Positions 4,214 through 60,821 of a DNA stretch of 64,000 nucleotides are shown one piece after another. Both the position numbers and the translations under genes were made by a program. The notes under the pieces were generated by a model. That model did not search any database. It was not told the origin of the DNA and was given only the letters and a program-made list of their open reading frames with translations. Source of the stretch: a virus; IMG/VR virus record IMGVR_UViG_3300036818_000127, positions 32,001 through 96,000 of that record, one strand, 5' to 3'. Numbering within the stretch: the first letter of the stretch is position 1; every line of letters begins with the position of its first letter.

Positions 4214-4741
4214 TTACCGTTCCTCACCCTTCTTAGGCAGGTATATAGCAATTCCGCTTGTCTGGATTGGTCCTCCGTCTTTGCCAGCTAATTCAATCTT
4301 CTGCACGATGCTAGCACCTCTTGCTTCTCTTTCAGCCTCAAGCGCCAATTTCAAGAGACTTACGCTTGCAAGTGCTCCGAACTTCTCAGCCTTGATAAGT
4401 TCCTCAATCTGCTTTATTGCACGTGCTTGCTGAGTTGTACCAATCAATGCTTGACGCTCATTCATTAGGTCAACTTCCTTCTCAAGCTTCTTCATCTTTT
4501 CTTCAGCTACTTTTGCAATCTGCTCTTGATCAAATTTCTTGGCACGTGCAACCCACTGATACTTGCTACTCCATTCCTCAAGTGTTCGTAAACGCACCGT
4601 CGCTTTGCCGTCGCTTTGCCGTCGCTTTGCTTTAATGACCTCTGCAAGCTTTGTAAGCGAGCGGTCTGGTCCTAGGTAGCAATATTCTAGGAAGGCTGCA
4701 GCGGCAGGCGGTGTCTCAATTTCTTCTTTTCTGTGGGCCAT
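4214..4741 (-). CDS. phage terminase small subunit-like protein
   Basis: AFLEY..LG..RSL..LA HTH, WSSKYQWVARAKKFD, C-terminal ELAGKDGGPI. Confidence 0.7.
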   Translation of the reverse strand: MAHRKEEIETPPAAAAFLEYCYLGPDRSLTKLAEVIKAKRRQSDGKATVRLRTLEEWSSKYQWVARAKKFDQEQIAKVAEEKMKKLEKEVDLMNERQALIGTTQQARAIKQIEELIKAEKFGALASVSLLKLALEAEREARGASIVQKIELAGKDGGPIQTSGIAIYLPKKGEER

Positions 4742-4745
4742 AGTC

Positions 4746-4952
4746 TTACTCTTCTTGCTCCAGTTGTTCGAGCAACTCTTCTAGCACGTCTACCTTGGAT
4801 TGCTTCCTTGCGGCATCTAATGCATCTTCACTCATTGTTTGAGAGTCCCCTGTCAGGACAGCGAGGCCGATCTTCTTCAGCAGCTCTGATGCCTCTGAAC
4901 TGTACTGCGCCTGGAGGATATAGATCATATCAGTAAACTGTTCTTTTCTCAT
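4746..4952 (-). CDS. hypothetical protein
   Basis: ORF with RBS in operon. Confidence 0.5.
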   Translation of the reverse strand: MRKEQFTDMIYILQAQYSSEASELLKKIGLAVLTGDSQTMSEDALDAARKQSKVDVLEELLEQLEQEE

Positions 4953-5662
4953 ATTCTTTTGCTACCTCCAGAACCAGTGCATAAAAGCATACACGATAAA
5001 GTAGATAACCGTAGCTCCAACTGCAAGCCAGAATATAACCTGGAAGCATATGAGGATAGCAGTAAGGATGCCAACTCTCTTGATGGTCTTCTCTGTCCGC
5101 GCAAAGCTTCGATTGAACTGTTGTTCAAACTCTCTACCAAATGGATACATGTACTCTTTCCCTTCCTTTTAATCGGGATAGTTCTCAGTAAGTCTCTTAA
5201 CCACCGAGGTATAATGCTCTGTGTCAAGATCCCAGCCTTGTGCTTTACAGAAGAGATCAACAAGCTTGTCCATCCCATCTTCATCAAGGTAAGATAGGAA
5301 CGGGCCAGAGTCCTTTTCTGGAGCCGTTCCAACTTGTGGATAGAGAGGTCCAAGTCTGTATCATCCACAGTAAGCTTCAATCTGAACTTATCATTTTCGA
5401 GCTTTTCTGGATCGGGCTTTTGTGCATGGCAGTAAGGGCATACATTGATGATATGAGCATTGACAGTTACATCTACAGCAGGTGCATGCATCCAGAGGAT
5501 TGCTTGGGGCATACCATGGACATCAAGGTCAACAAGCCTTACATGAAAGATCTTATCAATGAATTGGCCTGTATCTGCATCGGTAATCTTGGTCTGGTAT
5601 CCTGGCCCACCGTCATTCTGGATGTGAACACGGCGCGGTGGCTGCGGCTTCTCTTCAGACAT
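4949..5662 (-). CDS. hypothetical protein; C-terminus probably frameshifted near 5315
   Basis: Strong RBS; track ORF overlaps the next gene. Confidence 0.45.
   Translation of the reverse strand: MSEEKPQPPRRVHIQNDGGPGYQTKITDADTGQFIDKIFHVRLVDLDVHGMPQAILWMHAPAVDVTVNAHIINVCPYCHAQKPDPEKLENDKFRLKLTVDDTDLDLSIHKLERLQKRTLARSYLTLMKMGWTSLLISSVKHKAGILTQSIIPRWLRDLLRTIPIKRKGKSTCIHLVESLNNSSIEALRGQRRPSRELASLLLSSYASRLYSGLQLELRLSTLSCMLLCTGSGGSKRI
4962..5150 (-). CDS. small membrane protein
   Basis: Hydrophobic C-terminal half. Confidence 0.5.
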   Translation of the reverse strand: MYPFGREFEQQFNRSFARTEKTIKRVGILTAILICFQVIFWLAVGATVIYFIVYAFMHWFWR

Positions 5663-5677
5663 GATTAATCCCTCCTT

Positions 5678-6403
5678 TTAATTCTCACGGATAGCAATCC
5701 AGCCAGCGAAATTAAGATAGCGCCAGAAACAGTCAATCTGCTGGAAACCAGCCATATGCAATAGTTCCTCATTCCACCTTGCTGTCACAGGCACAAGCAC
5801 ACCCTCTAATGAAAGCCTCTTTCGCTCAATAGCCTCTTGGGAGTAGCCATTTGTTGCCTTGAGAGCATAGTAATTCTTGACGAGCAGGGTATCAATCTCG
5901 GCGCTTGATCCCAGAAGCTTCTCAACAAGGATAAACACGCCGCCAGGGACAGTGTGCTTGAAGACCTCGCGGATGATCCGCTGGCGATACTCTATAGGAA
6001 CAAATTGAAGAGTCAGAATAGAAAGCGTGACACTTGCCTTCTCTGGCGGGTAGTCCTTCCGAAGATCAAGGGAACGGATAGAGGCATGTGGTTCTATCCA
6101 CCCATTTGAAAACCGATCACTTGCACACTGCAACATCGGCTGACTTACCTCAATCCCGACACATGTCGTCTGGTGCCAGAACTTCTCAACAAATGGAGCT
6201 AGGGCATCGCCGCGAGCACACCCAAGGTCAACAATAGCCGTATGGGGTTTCACGAAGGGAGAAGCAATATCGAACACAGATTGCCGCATCACCTCATATT
6301 GAGGGATAGAGCGAACAAGCATGTCCTCAAAGACATCTGTGACACTCTGGTCAAAATCCCATTTGGCATCTGTAGGCATGTGCCCTATACTATCTTTTGT
6401 CAT
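5678..6403 (-). CDS. cmoA: carboxy-S-adenosylmethionine synthase (CmoA-like)
   Basis: WDFDQSVTDVFEDML.RSIPQY, DLGC, TLQF, EK and NGYS.E.I..KR.SLE all match CmoA motifs, including the key Arg. Confidence 0.88.
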   Translation of the reverse strand: MTKDSIGHMPTDAKWDFDQSVTDVFEDMLVRSIPQYEVMRQSVFDIASPFVKPHTAIVDLGCARGDALAPFVEKFWHQTTCVGIEVSQPMLQCASDRFSNGWIEPHASIRSLDLRKDYPPEKASVTLSILTLQFVPIEYRQRIIREVFKHTVPGGVFILVEKLLGSSAEIDTLLVKNYYALKATNGYSQEAIERKRLSLEGVLVPVTARWNEELLHMAGFQQIDCFWRYLNFAGWIAIREN

Positions 6404-6410
6404 CGCTCTT

Positions 6411-6545
6411 TCCTACTTCAATTACTCTCTACTATTTGTAGAAAACTCTACAACTTTTTGGTTATGTACCCCAGGAAAGGGCCATACAACTAAGAGAGGA
6501 TAGATTACCCTACCTGACCATAAAACTTCCAGAATGGCACTACAG
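6411..6545 (-). repeat. dispersed intergenic repeat, copy A
   Basis: Similar to 33547-33756 and 48052-48262. Confidence 0.8.
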
Positions 6546-6938
6546 TGGCACCTGGTCCAATTGCTGGTTATACCCGTTTCTTGGTGATCTATTTGCTCTC
6601 ATAATGAGATGAGCCTCAATATCATCTGTTTGGAAGATCTCTTTTGCAAAGGCAATTGCATCCTCCTGGCTAAATTCCTTGCAAGAGCAAATATCAATAT
6701 CAACCTCGCCGTGCTCCGGCCACGTATGCAGACTAACATGACTCTCTGCAATGATGACGAATCCTGATAGACCGGAATCTGCATAGCTCGGTGTTTGGAT
6801 ATTGTAGAGGGATGCTGGGCTTACCTTCTCCATCCCGATGCGAGAGGGATACTCATCAAGGATGCGGCGCATAAGTAATTCGTTACTCAGGATAGCTCGA
6901 TCAATATCGTACATTTCTAACATTAAGTGGATGAGCAT
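6540..6938 (-). CDS. speD: pyruvoyl-dependent SAM decarboxylase family protein (SpeD-like)
   Basis: GLSGFVIIAESHVSLHTWPE self-cleavage motif. Confidence 0.85.
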   Translation of the reverse strand: MLIHLMLEMYDIDRAILSNELLMRRILDEYPSRIGMEKVSPASLYNIQTPSYADSGLSGFVIIAESHVSLHTWPEHGEVDIDICSCKEFSQEDAIAFAKEIFQTDDIEAHLIMRANRSPRNGYNQQLDQVPL

Positions 6939-6953
6939 GCTAGTTCTTTCCTC

Positions 6954-7466
6954 CTATAAAGATCCTGTCTTGAGTGCGTCGATTTTCCTCTGAAGATACC
7001 AGGAGAAAAACCCTTCATTTCTTTTTTGGAATTCAGGATCTTTCCAGGCATTGCCATCAATAGTGCCCCGACATTCAGGACTCCCACATTGACACTGCAT
7101 GCTCCAGACCCCATCATATCTCTCTGTTGTTTCATAATCGAAACATAGCTCTTCGCCTGCCAGGATATCACGGCGGGCAATGAATACCGTTTGGCCTTGC
7201 ACGCCGATATTCGGAGAGCAGCTATGATTCACCCCATAGGATTTCAGGTGGGGCACCCCGAGATAGACGTTATCACAAACATGATAGAAATTATCTGAGA
7301 TGGAGCGAGGAAAAGCATCAGTTTCCTCTTCAGTGATAATGTCCCCACCATATACAAAAGCGATTTCACCTTCTGGAATGAACTCTGTAGCAAAGAGGCC
7401 GATACCCTGGACAGGGCTGTTCTTGAATTCGCTCTTTGGCGAAAAGTAGGAATAATATTTATGCAT
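6954..7466 (-). CDS. SET/post-SET domain methyltransferase
   Basis: GIGLFA, NHSCSPN, GEELCFDY, CQCGSPECRG. Confidence 0.9.
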   Translation of the reverse strand: MHKYYSYFSPKSEFKNSPVQGIGLFATEFIPEGEIAFVYGGDIITEEETDAFPRSISDNFYHVCDNVYLGVPHLKSYGVNHSCSPNIGVQGQTVFIARRDILAGEELCFDYETTERYDGVWSMQCQCGSPECRGTIDGNAWKDPEFQKRNEGFFSWYLQRKIDALKTGSL

Positions 7467-8319
7467 TAGGAACTCCTTGGTGGATCTCACTAAAAAGACG
7501 GCGGTAAATGACAATAATTGCCTTCGCATGGCTTACATTGTACTTTGACTGAAGAAGCGTGTCATGCCACTCACGAAGTCCGCTGTTGATTTGCAATGGA
7601 CTATTTGTTCGGTACCATTTCCCACATTTCCAGAACTCAGGGAAGGCGCGGATAGCTAATCCCTTCTGGACAGGGATGTGGATATCATAGGATTTGCAAG
7701 AAAGAAGAAAGTCTATGAGGTCAGGATTGCGAAAGGAATCATAGATCTGTACCCCACATGAAAGTGCTGTTTTTATACAACTTATATCTGAACCACCTTC
7801 CCAAGCAAGCCATTCACGCCGCTTCTGCGTAAACCATTCCTCCCCATGTTCCTTGATACCTACAGAAAAAAAGCGAGATACGCCCCATAAGTCATCAGCA
7901 TTCATTGCGAATGATGCATCACGGTACCCATCATTAAAAGCTGCTTCTGCAAGATAGAGGAATGGATGCGCACATTGTATATGTATTTTTCTGAGTCTAC
8001 AGACAATTGGCAGCACACGGCGAATATCGGCAATGAGTGTTTCCTCATTCTGAGGGATTGAGACAATCGTATGGGGGATATCAAAGTACTTGCAGACAGA
8101 TCGAGAGACCTTTGCATCACTACTCTCACGGTTCCCTACCTGGAAGGTATAGCAGTGTGGTGGCTTATATCCGAGCGAGAGAATACCAGCAAGGTTTGTC
8201 ATACTATCAGTTCCGCCGCTTAGCATCAGCGGCATAGACACATAGGGCTTGATTGCCTCTTGGAACAGAGATCGGAATGTCTGCGCCTGCTGCTCTTGCT
8301 GTCTGCTCACTGCTCGCAT
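7459..8319 (-). CDS. asparagine synthetase-like ATP-dependent amide ligase without glutaminase domain
   Basis: PP-loop LSGGTDS, NADDLWG; RBS AGGAGAGG before MRAV. Confidence 0.75.
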   Translation of the reverse strand: MRAVSRQQEQQAQTFRSLFQEAIKPYVSMPLMLSGGTDSMTNLAGILSLGYKPPHCYTFQVGNRESSDAKVSRSVCKYFDIPHTIVSIPQNEETLIADIRRVLPIVCRLRKIHIQCAHPFLYLAEAAFNDGYRDASFAMNADDLWGVSRFFSVGIKEHGEEWFTQKRREWLAWEGGSDISCIKTALSCGVQIYDSFRNPDLIDFLLSCKSYDIHIPVQKGLAIRAFPEFWKCGKWYRTNSPLQINSGLREWHDTLLQSKYNVSHAKAIIVIYRRLFSEIHQGVPNA

Positions 8320-9749
8320 TGATCTAGTATCCTCTCCTGTATCGTCTTGGCTACCTTTTCCATCATCACAGGAGGCACTGCACGGCCAAGTCGCTCCCAT
8401 TGCTGTGAATAGGTCCCTGTCAGAATAAAATCATCTGGAAATGCACAGATCCTCTTCAGTTCAGCAATAGAAAATTTCCGCTTCTCAGTTGGATGGGTAA
8501 CGCCAGCAGCAGCAGCAGGTGACCATGCAGTGCCAGCAGTCTGGGTGACAGTAGGGCATGGGCCATCAAGGGGTGCTCGCTGTAGAGAGAAGTATTTTTG
8601 ACTCTGTTCTCCAGGCTTTAATTTATCCCATTCCCTGCCGATTGCAAACTTGCTAATATCAGATTCAGGCTCAACAATCTGTTCCTCTATCCAGTGTGTT
8701 CCTACTGATCCAGATAAAACTGTTGGGCTCGGCTGGTCAGTAATATCGCTGCCATTACCAAAGGCCCCGCGATCATCACGGATAGCACGGATAGGGACAT
8801 GCTGTTCCTCGATATACCATTGCTGCATTGTCGTCAAGGTCGGAGAGGGAGTATCTGTAATGTCCCCCTTGCTATATTGAGGTTGGCCTTTTGCATCATG
8901 GATCGCACGTACAGGAATAGCTTCAATAAGGCTAGAAGGGGAAAGCCCATTTCCAAATGCTGGACTTGCGCCAATAGTGCCGCTAGGTGAGGTGGATGTA
9001 TCTCTCCATCCCTCTGTCCCGAATACTGGTCCAGCGCCTTGTCTGATGATCCAGGGCAATGCCTCACGTACTGTATAGGTATAAGGAAGTGGAGCCGGAT
9101 GGGCTGGCCTTATCTTGTACTGCTCAACAAGATCATTTCTCACACCGACAAAGATAAGGCGTTGGCGCATCTGGGGGACACCGAGCCACTGCGCATCAAG
9201 GATCTTGGCCTCAACAGTATAGCCACATGATTTTAGTTCCTTCAGTATCTCTAGGAAGTAGCCTTTAGCTGTCCCCTTCACAAGCCCGCTCACATTCTCA
9301 GCAACAAATACCTTTGGCTGTAATCCCTTGAGAAGTCGTACATATTCAAAGAAGAGATCATCAACCCGCTGGCGCGTATCACTGTAATCCTTGACTTTGC
9401 CCCAGCTTGCCTCACGCTTTCCAGCAGTTGAGAATGATGCACAGGGAGGACTTCCTTCAAAGACATCAAGCTCACCCTGATTTAGATGTATAGCTTTTAA
9501 AATCTCATCTGGTTTTATTTTACGGATATCACGCGCATCAAGAATAGAATGAGGATGATTAGCTTTATAGGTATCTCGTGCTGCTGGTATAAATTCATTT
9601 GCCCAAAGAATACGGTACCCTGCAAGACGGAATCCAAGGCAACTTCCGCCACACCCTGAGAATGTACTTACAACATTACGGCCATTCCATGGTATTTGTT
9701 CTATTTCCCTCATTGAAGGGACTCTGTAAGGAGGCTTGTCTTTTATCAT
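8307..9749 (-). CDS. C5-cytosine DNA methyltransferase homolog, probable carboxymethyltransferase
   Basis: FSGCGG, GSPPC, ENV, QxRxR; motif X is GRAVPP (N to R); ATGA overlap with the ParB-like gene. Confidence 0.9.
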   Translation of the reverse strand: MIKDKPPYRVPSMREIEQIPWNGRNVVSTFSGCGGSCLGFRLAGYRILWANEFIPAARDTYKANHPHSILDARDIRKIKPDEILKAIHLNQGELDVFEGSPPCASFSTAGKREASWGKVKDYSDTRQRVDDLFFEYVRLLKGLQPKVFVAENVSGLVKGTAKGYFLEILKELKSCGYTVEAKILDAQWLGVPQMRQRLIFVGVRNDLVEQYKIRPAHPAPLPYTYTVREALPWIIRQGAGPVFGTEGWRDTSTSPSGTIGASPAFGNGLSPSSLIEAIPVRAIHDAKGQPQYSKGDITDTPSPTLTTMQQWYIEEQHVPIRAIRDDRGAFGNGSDITDQPSPTVLSGSVGTHWIEEQIVEPESDISKFAIGREWDKLKPGEQSQKYFSLQRAPLDGPCPTVTQTAGTAWSPAAAAGVTHPTEKRKFSIAELKRICAFPDDFILTGTYSQQWERLGRAVPPVMMEKVAKTIQERILDQCEQ

Positions 9750-10342
9750 TTCGGCTTTCCAGACCATTGATAGCTGCATTTTGGGCAACAGTATTCTGTA
9801 TCGATACCTTCATCATAGCTCTTGAAATCATCTGGTGATTCCCTGCCATCATCCTCCTCATCTAGATAGGCATCCCCGAGCTTTTCTAACATCTGGCGGA
9901 GTGCTTCCCCGTCCGTCCCGAGACTTGCAAGATCAAACCCCGCCTGCTCCTGTTCCTCTAAGAGCTGGGCCAGGGACAATTCATCTGGTTCAGCTTTATT
10001 CCCTAAGTGATTGTCGCTAACCATATAGCCTTTGGCGTCTAATATGCTCCACTCTGGAGGTGCGATAACAACAGCCCAGCTATTGAGGTGAGCATACTTT
10101 GCAGGGTTTTCTGCATACAGTTCTTTTGCTGCCTCAGTGATTCCATGACCAGCAAGGATAATGTACTGTTCCTCGCCGACAGCCTGCTGGACGACAATGG
10201 GGCGCACCTGCTTGTACCTCATAAGTGAGGCTTTTAGGTCTGCAATTTGAGCAGGTGGATGTTGATTGTAGTTGGCCGGATGACCTTCAAGGCTATCAAG
10301 GGTTACTCTTTTGAATTGGACCTCATTGCTTGTTGCAGGCAT
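9746..10342 (-). CDS. ParB/Srx N-terminal domain protein of the kind found in phage modification clusters
   Basis: HPANYNQH..QI..L.ASL, ILAGHG, SDN; C-terminal CPKC. Confidence 0.8.
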   Translation of the reverse strand: MPATSNEVQFKRVTLDSLEGHPANYNQHPPAQIADLKASLMRYKQVRPIVVQQAVGEEQYIILAGHGITEAAKELYAENPAKYAHLNSWAVVIAPPEWSILDAKGYMVSDNHLGNKAEPDELSLAQLLEEQEQAGFDLASLGTDGEALRQMLEKLGDAYLDEEDDGRESPDDFKSYDEGIDTEYCCPKCSYQWSGKPK

Positions 10343-10446
10343 GAATGTCTCCATTAAAACAAAAAGGACACTTTTCAACCTCATAGTATGAGGGAAAAGC
10401 GCCTGATGCATATTGCATTGTCTAAGCGTTATGTATTCTGTTTTTG

Positions 10447-10710
10447 TTAGTCTTGAGGCTGAGAAACTGCTACTCCGTTATACAAACCATACCTTTTACT
10501 TGGTCTTTTGTGTTTGTATGCTCTATTCGTTATGGAGTACGTCTTCGTACCCAGCCTCATCCCTTGGCCGTCATTCTGGAACTTAAATTCAACACGGCCA
10601 TGACCGCCCTCTCGCTCAATGAGGCGTTTACTGCTCTGGAGGTAGGCATACATCTCCAGGTCCTCATCGTTTGGTCCAGTCGGCAAGATTGAACTATTCT
10701 CTGAATCCAT
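10447..10710 (-). CDS. hypothetical protein
   Basis: ORF with RBS. Confidence 0.5.
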   Translation of the reverse strand: MDSENSSILPTGPNDEDLEMYAYLQSSKRLIEREGGHGRVEFKFQNDGQGMRLGTKTYSITNRAYKHKRPSKRYGLYNGVAVSQPQD

Positions 10711-10929
10711 TGTATCCTATTCTTCTATGCTATAGGGACAATTATTCTAATAACAATGTAACATACGTTCGATATATAAATCAAGTGGACAAGCGGACAT
10801 GACACAAAAGAAGGAAGGGGTTTACCTCTAGATACTGAAATGTGTTGAAGAAATCAGAACTACGAGGTAGTTAGGAAGTACTCGGCCACGTTTATAGTAG
10901 AATCCCCTCCTGTCATCATCATAACATAT

Positions 10930-12159
10930 CTATAGTCTTTTGTTCATCAGCAAATGGACCCTACTCTTTTCTGCTACAATTTTGGGTATATGTTTTTCTA
11001 GAGAGAGTACAGTGCCGTGCTTCTGGAAAATATATTCTGAAACATCCATGTGCTCAAATACATAGGGCTTAAATACTGTATCCGATAAGTCCTCAACAAA
11101 ATAAGCCTTACTAGGCAAGTTCTCAATAAGAAGAGTAAATAATGCAGCATAGACACCAACAATCACCTGCATGCATGTTCCATTTGTGCCATTGGCAGCA
11201 AAGTTGAGTGCTGAATTAAAGTAGTATACTTTTTTATCATCATAGTCCAAGATGACACCAATATTATCTGAACCATTGATAGGGATGAGTATATTATCAC
11301 CATGAACAAGATCTGCATGACTGACATGATGTTTCCTGCTATAGATGTCATCCATATAATCCATTGTCTTCATGTGGATGGCATAGATGAATTGAGAGGG
11401 GATATCATACTTTTGTGCAATAGATACATTTTCATCATGCAGGATAATAAGTCCTTGGGGATAGGCATCCAGTTTCATAATAGGAGAGAGAAGAGGCTCC
11501 ATATCCATTCTATGTTTCAGTCCATTAGGGAAAAGTTCTCTAAGCTGATCTCTTCCGAGCATTATCCCGCTAGGGCTGCTGACTGCCTCGACTAGGAACT
11601 CATGAATAGACCATGTGATCGTAGGCATCCATTTTTCCCGAGCAGTTGACGTATCATATTCAAAATGGATAACCTCTCGCGGGACCCCATATTTTTCAAT
11701 GCCATACTGCACCCACATATTCACAACCCCTGGATTCATTCCAGTACAGAGAATATGAGGGGCACCTGTAAGTACCTCTTTCCTATCATAGATATCACGA
11801 ATAAGCTCTAAGCAGGATTGGTCATCATTATTCATGCATGCATTGACATAAGAGACATGAGCCTTATTTGTTGCTTCTAGGATAGGAAGTGAATCAGCAT
11901 CAGTCAGGTCCAGAACGATATCAATATGATACCTTTCGAGAATAGCAACGTAGTCAGCATAATCTGAGGTAAGTTCTTTTTGTATAAATGTGTAATCTAG
12001 CTTCTTGTGGTCAAGGCGTGGATTAACAAGAACACCATTAGACATATCAAGAAGAACGACTGTACCAAACATCTCTCTATAGAAAGGCAGATAGAGAAGG
12101 ACTGCATTAGAGATACTTCCAGAAGCACCAAGCAGCAGTAGGTTTTTTATTCTACTCAA
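10930..12159 (-). CDS. homospermidine synthase / saccharopine dehydrogenase family protein
   Basis: N-terminal Rossmann LLLGASG, GMNPGVVN, EYDT, TWS..EF..E, HDE. Confidence 0.75.
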   Translation of the reverse strand: MSRIKNLLLLGASGSISNAVLLYLPFYREMFGTVVLLDMSNGVLVNPRLDHKKLDYTFIQKELTSDYADYVAILERYHIDIVLDLTDADSLPILEATNKAHVSYVNACMNNDDQSCLELIRDIYDRKEVLTGAPHILCTGMNPGVVNMWVQYGIEKYGVPREVIHFEYDTSTAREKWMPTITWSIHEFLVEAVSSPSGIMLGRDQLRELFPNGLKHRMDMEPLLSPIMKLDAYPQGLIILHDENVSIAQKYDIPSQFIYAIHMKTMDYMDDIYSRKHHVSHADLVHGDNILIPINGSDNIGVILDYDDKKVYYFNSALNFAANGTNGTCMQVIVGVYAALFTLLIENLPSKAYFVEDLSDTVFKPYVFEHMDVSEYIFQKHGTVLSLEKHIPKIVAEKSRVHLLMNKRL

Positions 12160-12374
12160 GAGCGTACCTTCTCCTTAATGATGCATGCTTCGATATCTTC
12201 TCTATTATAGAGTATTCGGTTACCGACAGGCTCAGTACGAACAGGATTTCTCTTCCTCTGTGATAGTCTCCTTATGTATTTTGGAGAGATCGGACGCTTA
12301 TATTTCAAGCTCAACAGTTCAGAGGCATCATGAGCAGAAATGTAGTCAGCAAGAGCGATGATTTTTCTTGGCAT
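12156..12374 (-). CDS. HTH DNA-binding protein (excisionase/MerR-like)
   Basis: YISAHDASELL...YIRRL...LYNREDI. Confidence 0.65.
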   Translation of the reverse strand: MPRKIIALADYISAHDASELLSLKYKRPISPKYIRRLSQRKRNPVRTEPVGNRILYNREDIEACIIKEKVRS

Positions 12375-12526: not shown

Positions 12527-13549
12527 ATGGAGGTACTCATGGAATATGAAGTTATCCCTGTTCATTCCACTCTTGACCAAGTTGGGCAAAGTGAGAATGT
12601 CATCTCAGCAAACAATGCTTTTAAGGACTATCATGACAGGATAGACCCAAATACTTTTGCACGTCAAAGTTATGACATGGCACTCTTTTGCGCATTTATT
12701 GCAAGCAAGAAAGTGCTAGTAGACAAAGATGAGCTATTATCCAGTCCCAGAGCATGGTTAGATATCACTCACGGAATGATTGACAGCTTTGCAAAATGGA
12801 TGATAGAAGAAGGCTTTGCTATAGGCTCAATAAATATACGTTTATCTACTGTAAAGACGTACTTCAAGCTTGCTTCTAGAGCAGGCTATATTCAACCTGA
12901 TGAAGCAGTAAAAGCCCATTTTGTAAAAGGGTACAGCTACAAGCAAGGGCTAAACGTTGATGAACGAAGGGAGATAAAGCGCAAGGATAAGAGCAAGAAA
13001 GCTGAGCCCATACCATTAACAAAAGAGCAAACGGATCTACTTAAAAAGCATCCAAATACACCACAAGGGCGACGTGATGCCTTGCTTATGTGCTTGCTCT
13101 TAGATCATGGTTTACGATGTGGGGAGGTTGCAGACCTTACACGTGCCAATATTCAACTTACCTCTGGAATACTTACCTTTCATAGGGAGAAAACCAAAGA
13201 AGAGGATAAGCATAAACTCACGAATGATACATTGGTTGCCCTCATGAGGTACTTTGAAGTCTACCATCCAACTGGCAAGCTCATAGCTGGCAGCCATAGG
13301 AGCGGCCAACTTATGGGGGAAATGAGCAGAAGAGCCATAACTAAGCGTGTACAAGTCTTAGGGGAGCAGATACTTGGGATAAAGAATCTCTCAGCGCATG
13401 ATTGCAGACACGCTTGGGTGGAAGCTGCCATACGAGGGGGAACCAATATCAAGACGCTCCAACAAGCGGGTGGCTGGTCAAGTCCCGCTATGCCACTGAG
13501 ATACGCCGCAAAGGCTGAAATTTCAAATGAAGGAGTAAAACTAGGATGA
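12527..13549 (+). CDS. tyrosine recombinase/integrase
   Basis: HGLRCGE, K, HDCRH, GW, catalytic Tyr in PLRY. Confidence 0.92.
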   Translation: MEVLMEYEVIPVHSTLDQVGQSENVISANNAFKDYHDRIDPNTFARQSYDMALFCAFIASKKVLVDKDELLSSPRAWLDITHGMIDSFAKWMIEEGFAIGSINIRLSTVKTYFKLASRAGYIQPDEAVKAHFVKGYSYKQGLNVDERREIKRKDKSKKAEPIPLTKEQTDLLKKHPNTPQGRRDALLMCLLLDHGLRCGEVADLTRANIQLTSGILTFHREKTKEEDKHKLTNDTLVALMRYFEVYHPTGKLIAGSHRSGQLMGEMSRRAITKRVQVLGEQILGIKNLSAHDCRHAWVEAAIRGGTNIKTLQQAGGWSSPAMPLRYAAKAEISNEGVKLG

Positions 13550-13887: not shown

Positions 13888-14005
13888 GGAGATTGACAGA
13901 CTATCTAGTCTAAAATATACTTTTATTATCAAACAAAAGTACAGGTCCACCTAGCTCTTGTTTTGCCGCCAGAGAGAAGGCGGCAAATTTCTTGAAAGGA
14001 CAGCA

Positions 14006-14512
14006 ATGATTGATGAATTCCTAGAAAATGCTAAAAATGGAGAGCATGAGGCGCTGAGTGAGATCTATCGGCATTTCTTTCCTAAGATATTTCATTTTAT
14101 CCTAAAAAGGGTGGGTTTTCATGAAACAGCAGAAGATCTCACCTCAGAGGTTTTTATTCAAATGCTCAAACATATCCGTCTATTTAAATCAGAAAATGCT
14201 ATGGCGTTTCACAAGTGGCTTTATCAGATTGCGAGGGCAGTGATAGCAGAGCATTACAGAAAAAGAAAAGATATACTCTCACTTGAACAGAATGATGAGA
14301 GCATCTTCGATGAAATCGCCCAGCATGAGGCATGGCTGGATCTTGTCCAAGGAATCAACAAGCTCCAAGACTCGCACCGTCAACTCATTATCGACCGCTT
14401 TATTTTAGGGTATAATCAGGCAACCATCGCAAGGCTTACAGGAAAGAAAGAGGGTACAATTAGAGTAACTGAATATCGTGCAACACAAAATCTACGAAAA
14501 TTGATACGTTGA
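14006..14512 (+). CDS. ECF-family sigma-70 factor
   Basis: AEDLTSEVF, WLYQIAR, region 4 HTH. Confidence 0.9.
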   Translation: MIDEFLENAKNGEHEALSEIYRHFFPKIFHFILKRVGFHETAEDLTSEVFIQMLKHIRLFKSENAMAFHKWLYQIARAVIAEHYRKRKDILSLEQNDESIFDEIAQHEAWLDLVQGINKLQDSHRQLIIDRFILGYNQATIARLTGKKEGTIRVTEYRATQNLRKLIR

Positions 14513-28772: not shown

Positions 28773-29546
28773 ATGAGTAATATCCCATACAAGCAATGCA
28801 CAGGACCTTGCAGACAAGAATATCCTGCAACTACTGAATATTGGTATTCTGAAAAAAGGTCAAAGGATGGATTCAGAAACAGATGCAGAAAATGCATAAA
28901 ATGGCATCAAAAAGAATACCAACAACAAACAGAAGTCCAGGAGCAAAAAAAAGATTATAACAAAGAGTACTATGGTAGACCAGAAGTTAAAGAACAGCGT
29001 AAGGAGTCCTTCAAGCAATACAGCAAGGAGTATTATAGCCGTCCAAAAGTTAAAGAACAGCGTAAAAAATATTACAGCCGCCTAGAAGCAATAGAACAGC
29101 GCAAGGAGTATTATAGCCGTCCAAAAGTTAAACAACATAAAAAGGAGTACAACAATCGTCCAGAAGTACAAGAACGACATAAGGAGTTCTTTAAACAATA
29201 CGGCAAAGAGTACCGTAATCGTCCAGAAGTACAAGAACGTCTTCGTGTACATAGGATTAATCGTCGGGCACGCGAACATTCTGTTTTAGGAAAACATAGT
29301 CCTCAACAGATTAAAAATCAACTTAGGCATCAAAAACATAAATGCTACTATTGTCATAAACGTTTACGGAGGACTAAGGGAAAGTATGTTTATCACATAG
29401 AACATACTTTCCCTTTAAGCAGGGTAGCAGGTACTACTATACCTGCTAACAGCATTGAGTACATAGTGTTAGCTTGCCCTGCTTGCAATTTAAACAAAGG
29501 AGACAAATTTCCATGGGAGTATCCAGAAGGGGGAAGACTACTATAA
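28773..29546 (+). CDS. HNH endonuclease with internal KEYYSRPEV repeats
   Basis: CYYC...HIEH.FPLS...LACPACNLNKG. Confidence 0.85.
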   Translation: MSNIPYKQCTGPCRQEYPATTEYWYSEKRSKDGFRNRCRKCIKWHQKEYQQQTEVQEQKKDYNKEYYGRPEVKEQRKESFKQYSKEYYSRPKVKEQRKKYYSRLEAIEQRKEYYSRPKVKQHKKEYNNRPEVQERHKEFFKQYGKEYRNRPEVQERLRVHRINRRAREHSVLGKHSPQQIKNQLRHQKHKCYYCHKRLRRTKGKYVYHIEHTFPLSRVAGTTIPANSIEYIVLACPACNLNKGDKFPWEYPEGGRLL

Positions 29547-33462: not shown

Positions 33463-33546
33463 CAACTCCCTTAGCACCGAAAGAGGGAAGATGAGCTGTT
33501 TTTCATCTTTCCTCTTCTTTTTGTTTGGCTTTTTTAAACTACCCTT

Positions 33547-33756
33547 TCCTACTTCAATTTTTTTCTACTATTTCTAGATTTTTCTACAACTTTTTGGTTA
33601 TAGAGCCCAGGAAGGGGGCATACACCTAAGAGAGGATAGATTACCCTAGTAGGCACTAAAACTTCCAAAATGGCACTACAGGCCCATCTGAAGCACATGC
33701 TGGTTTTGCCGCTCTTATGCATCCCTTTCCTCTCAAAACAAGGTCAATTGTTCTAA
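33547..33756 (-). repeat. dispersed intergenic repeat, copy B
   Basis: Reverse complement of 48052-48262. Confidence 0.85.
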
Positions 33757-33770
33757 ATTCCCCCTCACCA

Positions 33771-34637
33771 TTAGGATACATTGATGCGCAGCATCCGGCC
33801 AGCTCCAGACTCAACCTTCGAGACCTTTAGATACTCCCGCTCAGAAAAGATATCTCCAGTTTGTTTGGCTGACAGGATTACCAGACCAACATTCTGGAGC
33901 TGCCGCATGATTCCAACAATCTGGCTTGGTCGAACACTATGGCCGTGGAGAGCAAGAAGACTACTCACCTCATGTAGCGTTATGCCCAGACCTTCAGAGG
34001 GTAGCATATGAAAAATAGTTTCTGCCATCTTGCGTTGCCCAGCATTGCTGCCTAGTTGATATACATCAGCAGTAGGGGACAGCCCCCACTTCCCTAGAAA
34101 ATGAACATCAAACTGACAATCATCATCTCCCTTCTGCATACAGGCTATCTCTTGGACAGCAACCACCTCACTATACTTCTTACCTGCACCTTCAATGGCA
34201 CCATAGAGGATAGGGCAGAGATGACGATGGCTATCATAGATGATGTGGATACCGAGCCCAGTGAGAGGTTCATATTGAAAAAGGGGTGGAACAATCTCTG
34301 ATGAGGCATGATTTAGCTGCTGATGGGCCATGCGCATCGTGAGGAGAAGATCTCTTGCACTATGAATGCCCTCTAGGAGATGAGAGCAAACATGGCTAGT
34401 AAAATTATTTGTAATAAAGTATTCTCCATACAGATACAAGAGAATACTAGGTGCAACCCCAGTTACTTTTGATGTGGCAGTAACTCCCTTCAACAATACC
34501 TCATCAGGATAGGTGCGAGTAACCAGCGGGATGTCCGCACCTGTCCCTGCTATTGAACTTCGATATATTCCAAGTGCAACCTCGCCGTACCTATCTGCTA
34601 GAAACTTCTCCCAGGTCGCAAAAATAAGACCATGCAC
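33771..34637 (-). CDS. H-NOX (heme-NO binding) plus V4R domain protein
   Basis: HGLIF N-terminus, proximal His in MAHQQL, PPLF, YxSxR (YDSHR), CMQKGDDDC. Confidence 0.8.
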   Translation of the reverse strand: MHGLIFATWEKFLADRYGEVALGIYRSSIAGTGADIPLVTRTYPDEVLLKGVTATSKVTGVAPSILLYLYGEYFITNNFTSHVCSHLLEGIHSARDLLLTMRMAHQQLNHASSEIVPPLFQYEPLTGLGIHIIYDSHRHLCPILYGAIEGAGKKYSEVVAVQEIACMQKGDDDCQFDVHFLGKWGLSPTADVYQLGSNAGQRKMAETIFHMLPSEGLGITLHEVSSLLALHGHSVRPSQIVGIMRQLQNVGLVILSAKQTGDIFSEREYLKVSKVESGAGRMLRINVS

Positions 34638-34717
34638 GTCTGCTACCTCCATTGGCTCATACTGCTAACAAAAACTATGTTACACAGGAATTATACACTC
34701 CTGTGTAAGCTATAGTA

Positions 34718-35788
34718 TCAGAGGATGTCAATACCTAGCTGATTGCTAGCCATTGAAGGACAGAAGAGCGGCAACGTAAAATAGAAGCTACTCCCTTCTC
34801 CCTCTATCCCGCTCGATTCAACCCAGATTTGTCCGCCCATGTTTTCTACCATGCGGCGGCAGTTGTACAGGCCAAGTCCCGTCCCGTCAACATGCCTTTC
34901 ATCATGCAGTCGTGAGAACTTCTGGAAAAGCTGACTGGCCTTCTCTGGGTCAATTCCATATCCTTGATCTTTAATGCAGACACAGGCGGCACCTTCATTG
35001 ATGCCAATCTTAACAGAAATAGGCGTCCCTTTGGCTGCATACTTGAATGCATTATGTAAGAGGTTACGTAGCACACGCTGGACCTGCGTAATATCGGCTA
35101 GGACTTCTACTCCTGTCGGGATATGAAGATCAACAAGGGGATGTTCAAAGGTGTAAATATATCGAAGCAGTTCTTTTACCACTTGGTCAAGATGGAATGC
35201 TTCTAGCTGAGGCGGGGACACATCATCGATGGCAGTCATAGCATCTCGAATATTTGAAGTAAGCCGAGCAACCTCATCACAGCTATAACTTGCCTGATCA
35301 AGAAACATTTGCTGCTCAGGAGCAGAGAGCTTTGCCCCATACTCTCTCAAAATACCGATTGACCCAATTGCCGTCGTCAATGGTGTCCTCATGTCATGAT
35401 TGAGGTTTGCTAGGAACTGGTCCTTGATCTGGTGAAACTCCTGTAGTCGGTCCATGGCAGATCGAAATGCTCCAATGGAGATAACGAGGATGAGGTCCGT
35501 GACTGTCCCTGAAATGAAAACGGCCAGGACATGAATAGACCATCCCTGATATACGGTGAGCAATACTATATGTATCCACAGTAGTCCCCACTCAAGAGCC
35601 AGTGCTTCTTTCCAGCTAAAGACCCAGCAGATGAACAATCCAAGGATCAGTAAAATAGAGGAAAAACCCCAATCGTGAAGAGAAATAATAAATGCTTCTT
35701 CTATGATAAATATGAAGATCGCACTGAAGAAGCGAACACATATAGGCAATTGACGCAAATATAGAACATGATTTCTAATGGCGTCCAT
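34718..35788 (-). CDS. membrane sensor histidine kinase
   Basis: TM helices, HDMRTPL, NAFKY, DQGYGI, GTGLGL. Confidence 0.92.
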   Translation of the reverse strand: MDAIRNHVLYLRQLPICVRFFSAIFIFIIEEAFIISLHDWGFSSILLILGLFICWVFSWKEALALEWGLLWIHIVLLTVYQGWSIHVLAVFISGTVTDLILVISIGAFRSAMDRLQEFHQIKDQFLANLNHDMRTPLTTAIGSIGILREYGAKLSAPEQQMFLDQASYSCDEVARLTSNIRDAMTAIDDVSPPQLEAFHLDQVVKELLRYIYTFEHPLVDLHIPTGVEVLADITQVQRVLRNLLHNAFKYAAKGTPISVKIGINEGAACVCIKDQGYGIDPEKASQLFQKFSRLHDERHVDGTGLGLYNCRRMVENMGGQIWVESSGIEGEGSSFYFTLPLFCPSMASNQLGIDIL

Positions 35789-49802: not shown

Positions 49803-49813
49803 ATGCATCAAAA

Positions 49814-50072
49814 ATTGCAGTACCCTCAAGGCGGGTCGATGGATTGCAACTCGACAGGAATGCGCGGCCAGGTCTCTAGCATGATCAATTGCAGTACCCT
49901 CAAGGCGGGTCGATGGATTGCAACTGGAATATCCTCTCCAGTAGATATCAACATACATCGGATTGCAGTACCCTCAAGGCGGGTCGATGGATTGCAACTT
50001 AGAAAGTCATTCGAGAGACACTTCCCTGATTTTGTATTGCAGTACCCTCAAGGCGGGTCGATGGATTGCAAC
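49814..50072 (-). CRISPR. CRISPR mini-array: 4 identical 37-nt repeats (ATTGCAGTACCCTCAAGGCGGGTCGATGGATTGCAAC on +), 3 spacers of 37 nt, no cas genes
   Basis: Repeats at 49814, 49888, 49962, 50036; leader-like sequence on the right. Confidence 0.97.
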
Positions 50073-50243
50073 TGCCGCAGCATATAAATCTTGAAAGACC
50101 CTACCACTCAACTTTTATCGCATGAGCCCTCTCTTGATCTTCTCAGCGCGGTGATTTCTTTTGTTTTGCTAAGGAAAAGCATACCAGATCTGTCAAGTTT
50201 CGCAAATTGGTTTTTGTTAAAATATGGCGTCGATTTGCGAGGA
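50073..50243 (-). promoter_or_regulatory. putative CRISPR leader
   Basis: AT-rich noncoding DNA with TTCGCAAA / TTTGCGAG motifs. Confidence 0.5.
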
Positions 50244-60201: not shown

Positions 60202-60411
60202 ATGAAGTGCCACATATGCCTGCGAGAGCAAGGCATCATCCCATCTCAACATGACAATGACCAGCACACCCTATGTGATGAGCATAGAAATGAGGCAGCA
60301 TCAACCTTTTATGTCGGCAAGCTTGCAAGAGAGCAGGCAGGTCGCTTATATGCAGGACATCACGATCTGAATAGGCTACTTCGATTGGTGGGTAGACAGT
60401 CAGGGACCTGA
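60202..60411 (+). CDS. small Zn-binding protein; last codons supplied by the inserted element
   Basis: CHIC...CDEH. Confidence 0.5.
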   Translation: MKCHICLREQGIIPSQHDNDQHTLCDEHRNEAASTFYVGKLAREQAGRLYAGHHDLNRLLRLVGRQSGT

Positions 60412-60821
60412 TCCCTTAAAAGGGATGGGCTTGTAGAGATGGGGGTAGTTTTTGCCCGTCTTCTCTCTAGCTTCACCTGACCAGACCCAGCCAGGGCTGT
60501 TCCTAGAAGGCTCATAGAGAGCGGGAAACAGCTATCGGGCTACGTTAGAGGCGAAATTAGGTACCATAGGATGCGAGGGCCAGTCCGATGCTCTACGGTT
60601 GCAGGTTAAACAGGTTTACGAGGGTTAGTGCCAGTGCTTGCAACGACAAACCGCTTTCTAACTTCGTCGAGGCCCCCATTACCTGGGAAACCAGTGGGGT
60701 TTAGCCGTTCCGTCATAAAACGGCTCCCCGCAAGGGGATTACTCCTAAACTAATCCAGCCTGCGGGCTACTTCTTTCCTCCCAACCACTAAAAGGGAATG
60801 GGTTTCCAGAAAGGATAACTG
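60399..60821 (+). mobile_element. non-autonomous IS200/IS605 element carrying a standalone IscB-type omega-RNA (HEARO-like)
   Basis: GTCAGG...CCTGACCAGAC closing stem, CTACGTT, GGATGC..GCCAGTCC, GGTTAAACAG, GTCGAGG..CATTACC; terminal hairpin shared with 23379-23807. Confidence 0.85.

Follow-up and report, generated by a model that had tools for sequence, protein, structure and literature searches.

The DNA of phage phiW-14 contains alpha-putrescinylthymine, a polyamine-decorated thymine. In phage SH-Ab 15599, the DNA carries alpha-1,3-diaminopropanylthymine (abbreviated alpha-dapT), a precedent for phages that put polyamines on their DNA and reprogramme polyamine supply (PMC13458397). On cytosine, the enzymes CmoA, CmoX, and CmoY of Synechococcus phage S-B43 give 5-carboxymethylcytosine (5cxmC) along with 5gcxmC, the amide it forms with glycine (Yang et al., Nat Commun 2025, PMC12783734). 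The S-B43 paper is silent on genes for polyamines, SET proteins, or decarboxylases, and it leaves "alternative amine substrates" open (PMC12783734). Finally, phage and virus genes for polyamine metabolism (SpeD, SpeE, and HSS) have been interpreted as raising free polyamines for replication, and none was reported within a DNA-modification operon (Li et al., PNAS 2023, PMC9992855).

Here, we analyzed a stretch of 64,000 nucleotides (the window) from a complete 109-kb phage (IMG/VR record IMGVR_UViG_3300036818_000127), which carries a tightly packed row of genes on the minus strand, from 12374 to 4949, in the order orf72, HSS-like, orf87, ParB-like, CmoX, CmoY-type ligase, SET, SpeD, CmoA, and orf237, followed by terS (Table 1). 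All seven genes named in an earlier note on this DNA were found, in the same orientation, and the partial translational coupling it had described was borne out: the CmoX ATG at 9749 overlaps the ParB stop, the CmoX stop overlaps the ligase ATG at 8319 by 13 nt, and the ligase stop overlaps the SET ATG at 7466 by 8 nt. The orf72 stop also overlaps the TTG start of the HSS-like gene. Gaps of 15 nt lie between SET and SpeD and between CmoA and orf237, and a 136-nt spacer, which had no match in Rfam, separates SpeD from CmoA; the 167-nt repeat to which this spacer belongs has a second copy at 33544-33710. The row does lie upstream of terS as had been stated, but terS (phrog_6299, 4214-4741) is not the ORF adjoining CmoA, as two ORFs without known function (4949-5662 and 4746-4952) intervene, the former, orf237, having no usable match in the atlas search. 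The module has a conserved place, marked by terS, directly upstream of the genes for packaging, and the related phage contigs L005, L006, L008, and L109 share this order.

Table 1. Features of the gene row and its surroundings (window coordinates)
Feature	Coordinates	Strand	Match or remark
orf72	12156..12374	-	First gene of row; weak HTH_17 match (PF12728, E 0.011, below cut-off)
HSS-like NAD-dependent amine oxidoreductase, 409 aa	10930..12159	-	Weak Pfam Sacchrp_dh matches
orf87	10447..10710	-	Function unknown; no match in Pfam, NCBIfam, or PHROG
ParB-like (ParBc) protein	9746..10411	-	phrog_620, 7e-22
CmoX-type DNA cytosine C5-carboxymethyltransferase	8307..9788	-	PF00145, 8e-59; probable start ATG 9749
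CmoY-family ATP-dependent amide ligase, 286 aa	7459..8319	-	PF00733, 3e-7
SET-domain methyltransferase, post-SET Cys cluster, 170 aa	6954..7466	-	PF00856, 9e-14
Class 1b pyruvoyl S-adenosylmethionine decarboxylase (SpeD) homolog	6540..6938	-	PF02675, 1e-24
Spacer, 136 nt, upstream of CmoA	6404..6539	-	Within 167-nt repeat
CmoA, carboxy-SAM synthase homolog	5678..6403	-	TIGR00740, 1.7e-41, below NCBIfam trusted cut-off
orf237	4949..5662	-	Function unknown, 15 nt downstream of CmoA; no family match
Terminase small subunit (terS)	4214..4741	-	phrog_6299, 3e-17

Judged by homology, the core of this row (CmoA, CmoX, the glutaminase-less ligase, and the ParB-like protein) is the already known 5-carboxymethylcytosine system. 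A phage trio of CmoA, carboxymethyltransferase, and amide ligase, which the earlier note had mentioned, is indeed published (PMC12783734), and the characterized S-B43 enzymes have their homologs in the window CmoX, ligase, and CmoA, which are clustered, as in S-B43, with a ParBc protein. CmoA matched E. coli CmoA (4GEK) over its full length (3e-30) and is 54-64% identical to the CmoA of syntenic phage loci. The top PDB match of CmoX was by far SpCmoX (8YF3, 3e-68; M.HaeIII only 8e-30); its motif IV reads GSPPC and its motif X reads GRAVPP, the Arg of which aligns with R350 of SpCmoX, and both defining features (SPPC and Arg) are thus present. The ligase, an Asn-synthase/PP-loop protein with the PP-loop SGGTDS and no glutaminase (GATase) domain, is a full-length homolog of SpCmoY (26% identity, E 5e-17; profile probability 99.8%). 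The locus differs from S-B43 in that the ligase falls in a separate clade (support 100/100) that it forms with three metagenome proteins, CmoX has a TRD-like insert in duplicate and is longer by 120 aa, and the gene order has changed, with SET and SpeD between the ligase and CmoA and the HSS-like gene upstream. The ParB-like protein is likely an accessory or activator of DNA-modifying enzymes; ParBc commonly neighbours CmoX (PMC12783734), and phage 5mYOX enzymes have ParB as an activator (PMC13229309). By homology to the S-B43 enzymes, CmoA would convert SAM and host prephenate to carboxy-SAM, and CmoX, with Arg replacing the motif-X Asn and probably assisted on double-stranded DNA by the ParB-like protein, would transfer the carboxymethyl group to cytosine C5. 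The ligase would then adenylate the new carboxylate of 5cxmC and form an amide with a primary amine.

What is newly described here is a variable slot between the ligase and CmoA, with polyamine genes in the window and in L109 (IMG/VR contig IMGVR_UViG_3300026516_000166, uncharacterized). Related phage contigs retain the order ParB, CmoX, ligase, slot, CmoA, and terminase, while the slot content differs: it is empty in L005, holds a DegT aminotransferase in L107, an aminotransferase and an inositol-1-P synthase in L006/L119 and L007/L008, a fusion of AdoMet_dc and Spermine_synth (SpeD-SpeE) in L109, and SET and SpeD in the window; in three contigs (L102, L108, and L120), CmoA directly follows CmoX. 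L109, whose CmoX is the closest to that of the window among full-length matches (63%), has the order ParB, CmoX, ligase, polyamine gene, CmoA, terS, and terL, and its fusion ORF is translationally coupled to the ligase by a 13-nt overlap; it differs from the window in its slot gene, in an additional 311-aa ORF before the ligase (weak OCD/mu-crystallin match), and in the absence of both SET and HSS-like genes from the record. The neighbourhood survey proposed earlier returned SpeD in a second Cmo operon but not HSS or SET, neither of which was found beside cmoA, cmoX, or the ligase in any other element examined. The idea that the amine comes from the additional genes gains comparative support from the varied amine-metabolism genes in the slot, and it is weakened in that HSS-like and SET genes were seen beside cmo genes only in the window operon.

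Since polyamine genes lie within the Cmo operon of this phage and of one other, the modified base is probably an undescribed one of polyamine type. We favor, with a rough probability of 0.55, a reading in which the whole row is a single operon for post-replicative cytosine hypermodification of phage DNA: the phage would make or boost a polyamine, the ligase would amidate it onto 5cxmC, and SET would N-methylate it. Gene position and the comparison of loci suggest that the amine is a polyamine-type molecule rather than glycine, with its supply secured by the phage. SpeD may provide decarboxylated SAM (dcSAM) for aminopropylation by a host spermidine synthase, the HSS-like enzyme may turn putrescine into homospermidine or a related aminobutylated amine, and SET could N-methylate an aminobutyl (lysine-like) amino group of the polyamine, before or after ligation. 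The expected product, a cationic polyamine amide of 5cxmC, would hide the base from nucleases and neutralize DNA charge. As in the polyamine-thymine phages, a host-type polyamine would be placed on a pyrimidine C5 substituent after replication, with the phage securing its supply; however, those phages modify thymine, start at 5-hydroxymethyluracil, use a diamine DNA transferase (DADT), and reprogramme host genes for the polyamine, whereas here cytosine, an amide ligase, and phage-encoded enzymes would be involved.

Several observations speak against this polyamine amide. The HSS-like gene is separated from the core by an 87-aa ORF (orf87) and a 219-nt gap, only SpeD recurs in the second Cmo operon, the window and L109 ligases do not group together in the tree, and ligases of this family are also found with no cassette at all (L004, L005, and L010). 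Neither a spermidine synthase nor an ornithine decarboxylase was found in the phage, so that dcSAM has no phage-encoded user. SpeD is also a common stand-alone auxiliary gene of phages, and both SpeD and HSS genes are documented in that role (PMC9992855); because none of the best 80 viral loci by SpeD similarity had cmo genes nearby, SpeD is usually free-standing, and even in S-B43 a SpeD gene lies some 36 kb away from the cmo genes. These findings, together with the absence of HSS-like and SET genes from other cmo loci, would fit two unrelated functions that merely adjoin, in which the amide of 5cxmC is made with an amine that is common in the host, such as glycine or another amino acid, or with ammonia, while the SpeD, HSS-like, and SET genes are ordinary auxiliary metabolic genes, raising polyamines to serve replication, translation, or the packaging of DNA, with a protein as the substrate methylated by SET. 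We consider this unlikely, although by no means negligible, given that SET and SpeD are wedged between the ligase and CmoA, that the same slot in L109 holds polyamine genes coupled to the ligase, that the remaining slot contents are aminotransferases, and that the ligase clade follows the cassette type: all three ligases linked to an aminotransferase group together (98/99) and the window ligase belongs to another clade (100/100), both clades lying outside SpCmoY.

The SpeD sequence looks like that of a true AdoMet decarboxylase rather than an ornithine decarboxylase. It matched T. maritima AdoMetDC (1TLU, 6e-11) with ESH...HTWPE...C conserved, retaining Ser, His, and Cys as well as the Pro of HTWPE, a mark of true AdoMetDC (PMC10407285). 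SGLSG-x-V...ESH...HTWPEH is also present in the SpeD domain of the L109 fusion, yet that domain and the window SpeD are only 33% identical, which suggests two separate acquisitions. The SET protein keeps the NHSCxPN, GEELxFDY, and CxCGSxxCRG motifs, and its closest structures, by sequence and by fold, are the lysine methyltransferases ASH1L, SETD2, and MLL; this likeness to lysine N-methyltransferases fits a putative N-methylation of an aminobutyl tail. Its PDB sequence matches also include BurB (2e-7), a SET-domain enzyme that can methylate free methionine, which it binds via main-chain atoms (PMC12542666). Together with the dcSAM that lacks a phage-encoded user and with the adjacency of SET and SpeD, both of which handle SAM-like sulfonium chemistry, this raises the idea that SET makes S-methylmethionine as BurB does, that SpeD decarboxylates it to 3-dimethylsulfoniopropylamine, and that the ligase couples this amine to 5cxmC. 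Taken jointly, these three steps seem very improbable, as BurB is weaker by sequence than the lysine methyltransferases and not among the top 50 fold matches, SpeD has the complete AdoMetDC central motif, and L109 couples SpeD with spermidine synthase, pointing to dcSAM.

The HSS-like protein, for its part, is probably a homospermidine synthase. It belongs to a divergent family of ~410 aa with 16-18% identity to crystallized HSS, whose profile matched HSS 6y87 (4e-9) and in which six HSS active-site residues are retained, the family-invariant N142/E167/W183/E191/H241/E243 aligning with N162/E210/W229/E237/H296/E298 of B. viridis HSS. An AF2 model (pLDDT 88.7) matched CASDH and HSS in Foldseek at about 1e-18 to 1e-19. 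HSS chemistry is aminobutyl transfer to a primary amine (PMC13625781), and thymidine hypermodifications are, as a rule, tailored post-replicatively on DNA (PMC8989533). The ligase might add a simple diamine or amino acid, with the HSS-like enzyme aminobutylating the DNA-bound chain and SET, which resembles enzymes acting on polymers, methylating its lysine-like tail; by chemical reasoning, a putrescine amide has a 4-aminobutyl tail that is an isostere of the lysine side chain. Such tailoring on the DNA appears improbable, since both phage proteins, HSS-like and SET, are typical of cellular families (50-67% identity) and carry no recognizable DNA-binding extension, and the EamA or MFS transporters that adjoin cellular HSS-like genes suggest free small-molecule substrates.

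Members of DPANN, CPR, Verrucomicrobiota, and Planctomycetota encode homologs of the HSS-like protein with 50-58% identity. The database call of 380 aa was rejected because its ATG start leaves out the Rossmann motif GASGSIS (aa 11-17), which precedes it, and the start must therefore be the TTG at 12159. A SET gene lies within about 2.2 kb of the HSS-like gene in 5 of 80 cellular loci, and these neighbours, together with the transporters, point to a small-molecule product.

Only one natural 5-carboxymethylcytosine (5cxmC) system, that of Synechococcus phage S-B43, appears in the searchable literature, where no paper links 5cxmC to polyamines. Yang et al. (Nat Commun 2025, PMC12783734) showed that in this phage CmoA generates carboxy-SAM, CmoX makes 5cxmC, and glycine is attached by CmoY, a ligase resembling asparagine synthetase. 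CmoX is a C5-methyltransferase homolog recognized by its SPPC motif and by Arg350 replacing M.HhaI Asn304, and ParBc proteins often lie next to the system (PMC12783734). When this "carboxyl handle" was reported in December 2025, glycine was the single known amine, and the authors ask which others phages attach (PMC12783734). From sequence comparison, we favor, with a probability of roughly 55%, a reading in which the phage described here supplies a polyamine through its own genes and ligates it onto 5cxmC, a SET-domain protein adding N-methylation.

The window spans bases 32001-96000 of an IMG/VR virus record that is complete at 109,417 bp and carries direct terminal repeats. On the minus strand, a single dense gene row runs from ~12,500 down to terS (see table), its genes being assigned to families by Pfam, NCBIfam, and PHROGs. 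Three junctions overlap (ParB/CmoX, CmoX/ligase by 13 nt, and ligase/SET), and two gaps measure 15 nt. The row claimed in the earlier note is present, after minor correction of gene starts and of which ORF is terS. The database call of the homospermidine synthase (HSS)-like gene, 380 aa from ATG 12072, is without the NAD-binding GASGSIS, and a TTG at 12159 restores this motif (window 12072-12159). orf237 had no match in Pfam, NCBIfam, or PHROGs families and no usable atlas match.

Positions of features in the window and in the compared loci (L-numbers, loci from the scans)
Feature	Sequence	Position	Strand
orf72	window	first gene of row	-
HSS-like gene	window	10930-12159	-
orf87	window	between HSS-like and ParB-like	-
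ParB-like gene	window	9746-10411	-
C5-MTase (CmoX)	window	8307-9788	-
CmoX extra region	window	~8660-8920	
PP-loop ligase	window	7459-8319	-
SET	window	6954-7466	-
SpeD	window	6540-6938	-
CmoA	window	5678-6403	-
orf237 and orf68	window	between CmoA and terS	-
terS	window	4214-4741	-
Tyrosine integrase	window	12527-13549	+
Sigma-70-family factor	window	13958-14512	+
167-nt repeat, copy 1	window	6408-6574	
167-nt repeat, copy 2	window	33544-33710	
293-aa ORF	window	33771-34652	
29-nt promoter copies	window	17321, 21806, 24360, 27773, 52993	-
29-nt promoter copies	window	27919, 30421, 31940, 45786, 53130	+
ORF with tandem repeats	window	28773-29546	
39-nt tandem repeats	window	28897-29239	
356-aa membrane protein	window	34718-35788	-
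CRISPR-like mini-array	window	49811-50073	
HEARO RNA	window	60399-60682	+
Aminotransferase-type slot genes	L006	10806-13741	
Aminotransferase-type slot genes	L008	10740-12808	
Aminotransferase-type slot gene	L107	826-1971	
311-aa ORF	L109	6632-7567	
Cellular HSS-like/SET pair	L037	5481-8122	
Cellular HSS-like/SET pair	L055	5977-8820	
Cellular HSS-like/SET pair	L042	5977-7732	
Cellular HSS-like/SET pair	L040	3750-5522	
Cellular HSS-like/SET pair	L027		

Judged by sequence alone, the CmoA/CmoX/ligase core of the window is a member of the published 5cxmC system. The phage trio of CmoA, carboxymethyltransferase, and amide ligase named in the earlier note is indeed published (PMC12783734), and the window's enzymes match it. 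The window's CmoX carries GSPPC in motif IV, aligning with the SpCmoX motif in structure 8YF3, and the Arg of its GRAVPP aligns with the GRMVPP Arg that is residue 350 of 8YF3. In SpCmoX, this Arg (R350; N304 in M.HhaI) binds the carboxymethyl group (PMC12783734). Among solved methyltransferases, 8YF3 is far the best match (3e-68, against 8e-30 for M.HaeIII). The window's CmoA matches TIGR00740 at 1.7e-41, with 142 bits against a 193-bit cut-off, matches E. coli CmoA over its whole length (4GEK, 3e-30), and is 28% identical to SpCmoA, while the ligase has no glutaminase domain and aligns over its full length with SpCmoY (26% identity, E 5e-17, hhalign probability 99.8%). CmoX is ~120 aa longer than SpCmoX; the extra region holds a ~35-aa TRD-like segment (xPxRAIxD...DITDxPSPTxxx) twice in tandem and a third PxPT(V/L)T motif. 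The CmoX proteins of two scanned loci (L005 and L006) align across it, and the tandem segments may serve more than one target sequence.

Beyond this core, the row contains SpeD, the HSS-like gene, and SET. We read SpeD as probably a genuine class 1b AdoMet decarboxylase rather than a putrescine-forming derivative, because its central motif and HTWPE are kept, as in the SpeD domain of a fusion protein encoded by L109 (IMG/VR contig IMGVR_UViG_3300026516_000166). It aligns with T. maritima AdoMetDC (1TLU) with an almost identical ESH...HTWPE...C central motif, and the self-processing Ser and catalytic His and Cys, named as S63, H68, and C83 in T. maritima (PMC10407285), are kept. A conserved Pro separates true AdoMetDC from arginine-decarboxylase derivatives (SpeDA), and ornithine-decarboxylase derivatives (SpeDC) differ at four central-region positions: Gln, Thr, Phe, and Tyr (Li et al., PMC10407285); we infer that this Pro is the one in HTWPE. 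As a query, the window's SpeD recovered the bona fide S-PM2 and phiYS40 SpeD. Given the motif, these matches, and no pelagiphage among the tallied organism names, we judged it unlikely that SpeD is an ornithine decarboxylase feeding HSS. Searches of the phage for SpeE, ODC, MetK, and chorismate mutase, as other dcSAM users or sources of putrescine, SAM, or prephenate, were all negative.

The HSS-like protein is a probable homospermidine synthase (EC 2.5.1.44). It belongs to a ~410-aa family with 50-58% identity, spread over DPANN archaea, Patescibacteria, Verrucomicrobiota, and Planctomycetota, whose relatives are named "homospermidine synthase" in JGI annotation. In its N-terminal Rossmann motif, GASGSIS (aa 11-17), G11, A12, S13, and G14 are family-invariant. 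Identity to crystallized HSS is 16-18%, and Foldseek scored carboxyspermidine dehydrogenase (2e-19) and HSS (1.5e-18) alike; the catalytic domain of the family profile aligns specifically with HSS. In the profile alignment to 4XQ9, the family-invariant N142, E167, W183, E191, H241, and E243 pair with N162, E210, W229, E237, H296, and E298 of the B. viridis enzyme, which are its active-site residues. E210, W229, E237, and H296 are the subjects of a PDB variant series.

The SET protein keeps the NHSCxPN SAM-binding motif, the catalytic Tyr in ELxFDY, and the post-SET Cys cluster (26-sequence alignment), and its nearest relatives by sequence and fold are the lysine N-methyltransferases MLL, ASH1L, and SETD2. 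In cellular genomes, a SET gene lies within ~2.2 kb of the HSS-like gene in 5 of the best 80 loci, from four different lineages, and the two are directly adjacent in L037, L040, and L042. These pairs occur in DPANN, Patescibacteria, and Deltaproteobacteria, in two cases with an EamA transporter alongside; cellular HSS-like genes also have EamA or MFS transporter genes as neighbors and, in one instance, a SpeD homolog. Perhaps such pairs serve a methylated polyamine. Since the pairing occurs outside phages, HSS-like and SET are suggested to act on a free small molecule; tailoring of the amine while it is on DNA strikes us as improbable. BurB, a methionine methyltransferase with a SET domain (PMC12542666), suggests another route, to a sulfonium amine via SET and SpeD, but we retain a BurB-like role for SET as a low-odds rival only and regard the route as very improbable.

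In the polyamine pathway that we favor, CmoA would convert SAM to Cx-SAM, CmoX would convert cytosine to 5cxmC, and the ligase would adenylate the carboxylate and join it to an amine, all by homology to characterized enzymes. Position and comparison point to the genes between ligase and CmoA as the amine supplier, with spermidine as the predicted amine in L109. The window's amine would derive from dcSAM, which SpeD would make for a host aminopropyltransferase (the phage lacks one), and from the HSS-like enzyme, which would convert putrescine to homospermidine. SET would then methylate an aminobutyl amino group, which is like a lysine side chain, either before or after ligation.

The earlier note expected the polyamine genes to co-occur with the trio in related elements, and here the outcome was mixed: a SpeD-spermidine synthase fills the L109 slot, but HSS-like and SET genes were found beside cmo genes in none of the other loci scanned. 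Scanning IMG/VR with the HSS-like protein or the ligase as single queries gave no matches, so that profile scans were required; the best 80 loci were taken from each scan, and a metagenome scan by ligase profile, swamped by the generic PP-loop pattern, yielded 2 loci. No HSS-like or SET relative among these IMG/VR loci was next to cmo genes, neither gene occurred in the best 80 CmoA loci, and cmo genes were absent from the 80 viral loci whose SpeD is most similar, 10 of which contain SpeE. SpeD and HSS genes of viruses have been described as boosters of metabolism (PMC9992855). The polyamine genes could then be unrelated auxiliary genes, making the locus one more member of the published system. 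We consider this unlikely in view of L109, whose slot holds a single 381-aa protein with AdoMet_dc (4e-14) fused to Spermine_synt_N and Spermine_synth (2e-34), the ORF sharing its first 13 nt with the end of a ligase gene that is itself intact. Among full-length matches, L109 also encodes the closest relative of the window's CmoX (63%). The two SpeD domains are only 33% identical, which suggests that the polyamine insertions arose separately; as a scan query, the fusion protein matched itself only. Between CmoX and ligase, L109 has a 311-aa ORF that weakly matches ornithine cyclodeaminase/mu-crystallin (E 0.003, below cut-off); it may encode a further NAD-dependent amine enzyme within a cmo operon.

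A pattern not expected beforehand, which speaks for a link between the accessory genes and the cmo core, is that a ParB-CmoX-...-CmoA-terminase module recurs across otherwise unrelated phages with variable content. CmoA directly follows CmoX in many (L102, L108, L120); in phages with a CmoY-family ligase, the ligase-CmoA stretch differs from one to another and is empty in L005. L174 has a glutamine-dependent AsnB instead. The slot contains a DegT/DnrJ-type aminotransferase in L107, joined by a myo-inositol-1-phosphate synthase homolog in L006/L119 and L007/L008; a UDG-like protein also occurs among slots of this type, which point to a 5cxmC amide of an amino sugar or aminocyclitol. When 35 ligases were placed in a maximum-likelihood tree, the three linked to aminotransferases all fell into one supported clade (98/99), the window's ligase groups with three metagenome sequences (100/100) outside the SpCmoY branch, and the L109 ligase stands alone on a long branch, again with SpCmoY outside. 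Because related rows share labels, the tree is suggestive of ligase/cassette co-evolution, not proof. It seems that the amine is specified by a small cassette between ligase and cmoA, one class of which is polyamine biosynthesis. A more detailed version is tentative, and we would not bet on it at even odds: a plug-in operon, ParB-CmoX-ligase-[amine cassette]-CmoA, in which the cassette sets the cytosine's amine, giving an N-methylated spermidine- or homospermidine-type 5cxmC amide in the window (SpeD, SET, HSS-like), spermidine in L109, and amino-sugar or aminocyclitol amides in L006, L008, and L107.

This variable amine cassette is the broader lead, and the window, L109, and the aminotransferase loci together offer a testable answer as to which amines phages attach. 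Polyamine-bearing thymines such as alpha-dapT are known; they depend on other chemistry and host supply (PMC13458397), whereas the window has phage-encoded polyamine genes. If true, the plug-in version would give the first polyamine-bearing cytosine and the first SET-domain enzyme acting on a polyamine or DNA-tethered amine. Confirmation would (i) extend the list of natural DNA bases by a cationic polyamine-cytosine that may be methylated, (ii) connect the polyamine genes of viruses, hitherto interpreted as boosting metabolism, with DNA chemistry, (iii) establish a non-protein substrate for a SET-domain enzyme, and (iv) provide ligase variants with new amine specificities for use in enzymatic DNA labeling.

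The SpeD-CmoA spacer is filled by one copy of a 167-nt direct repeat (81% identical) ending at the CmoA start codon, the other copy following a 293-aa ORF; an Rfam search of the spacer repeat gave no match. A 29-nt promoter of the sigma-70 type (TTGACAGTTTATGGAAGATATGCTATACT) occurs in ten near-identical copies distributed over both strands, with none expected by chance. None of the phage's consensus promoters is inside the modification operon, whose transcription may therefore work in another way. The ten copies show that the host is bacterial. An archaeal-virus origin, hinted at by the DPANN homologs of the HSS-like protein, was rejected because of them and because the HSS-like family is widespread in bacteria too. 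At the DNA level, a search against isolated phages found no relative. Beyond orf72 and divergent from the modification operon lie genes for a tyrosine integrase and for a sigma factor of the sigma-70 family (regions 2 and 4). This phage probably has a temperate life cycle and supplies a sigma factor of its own.

Several other features were observed in the window. Just after a terminator-like hairpin lies a CRISPR-like mini-array with four copies of a 37-nt repeat (ATTGCAGTACCC...GGATTGCAAC) and three 37-nt spacers. A full-length HEARO RNA (RF02033) scored 102.9 bits, above the gathering score; HEARO RNAs are associated with HNH-endonuclease/IscB-type elements. Seven 39-nt tandem repeats inside one ORF encode a repeated KEYY-x-RPE-type peptide. 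Finally, two phage "kinase" families (phrog_857, 1.5e-38; phrog_10912, 1.6e-35) were hit by a membrane protein of 356 aa, and its C-terminal half is histidine-kinase-like, which is unusual in a phage.
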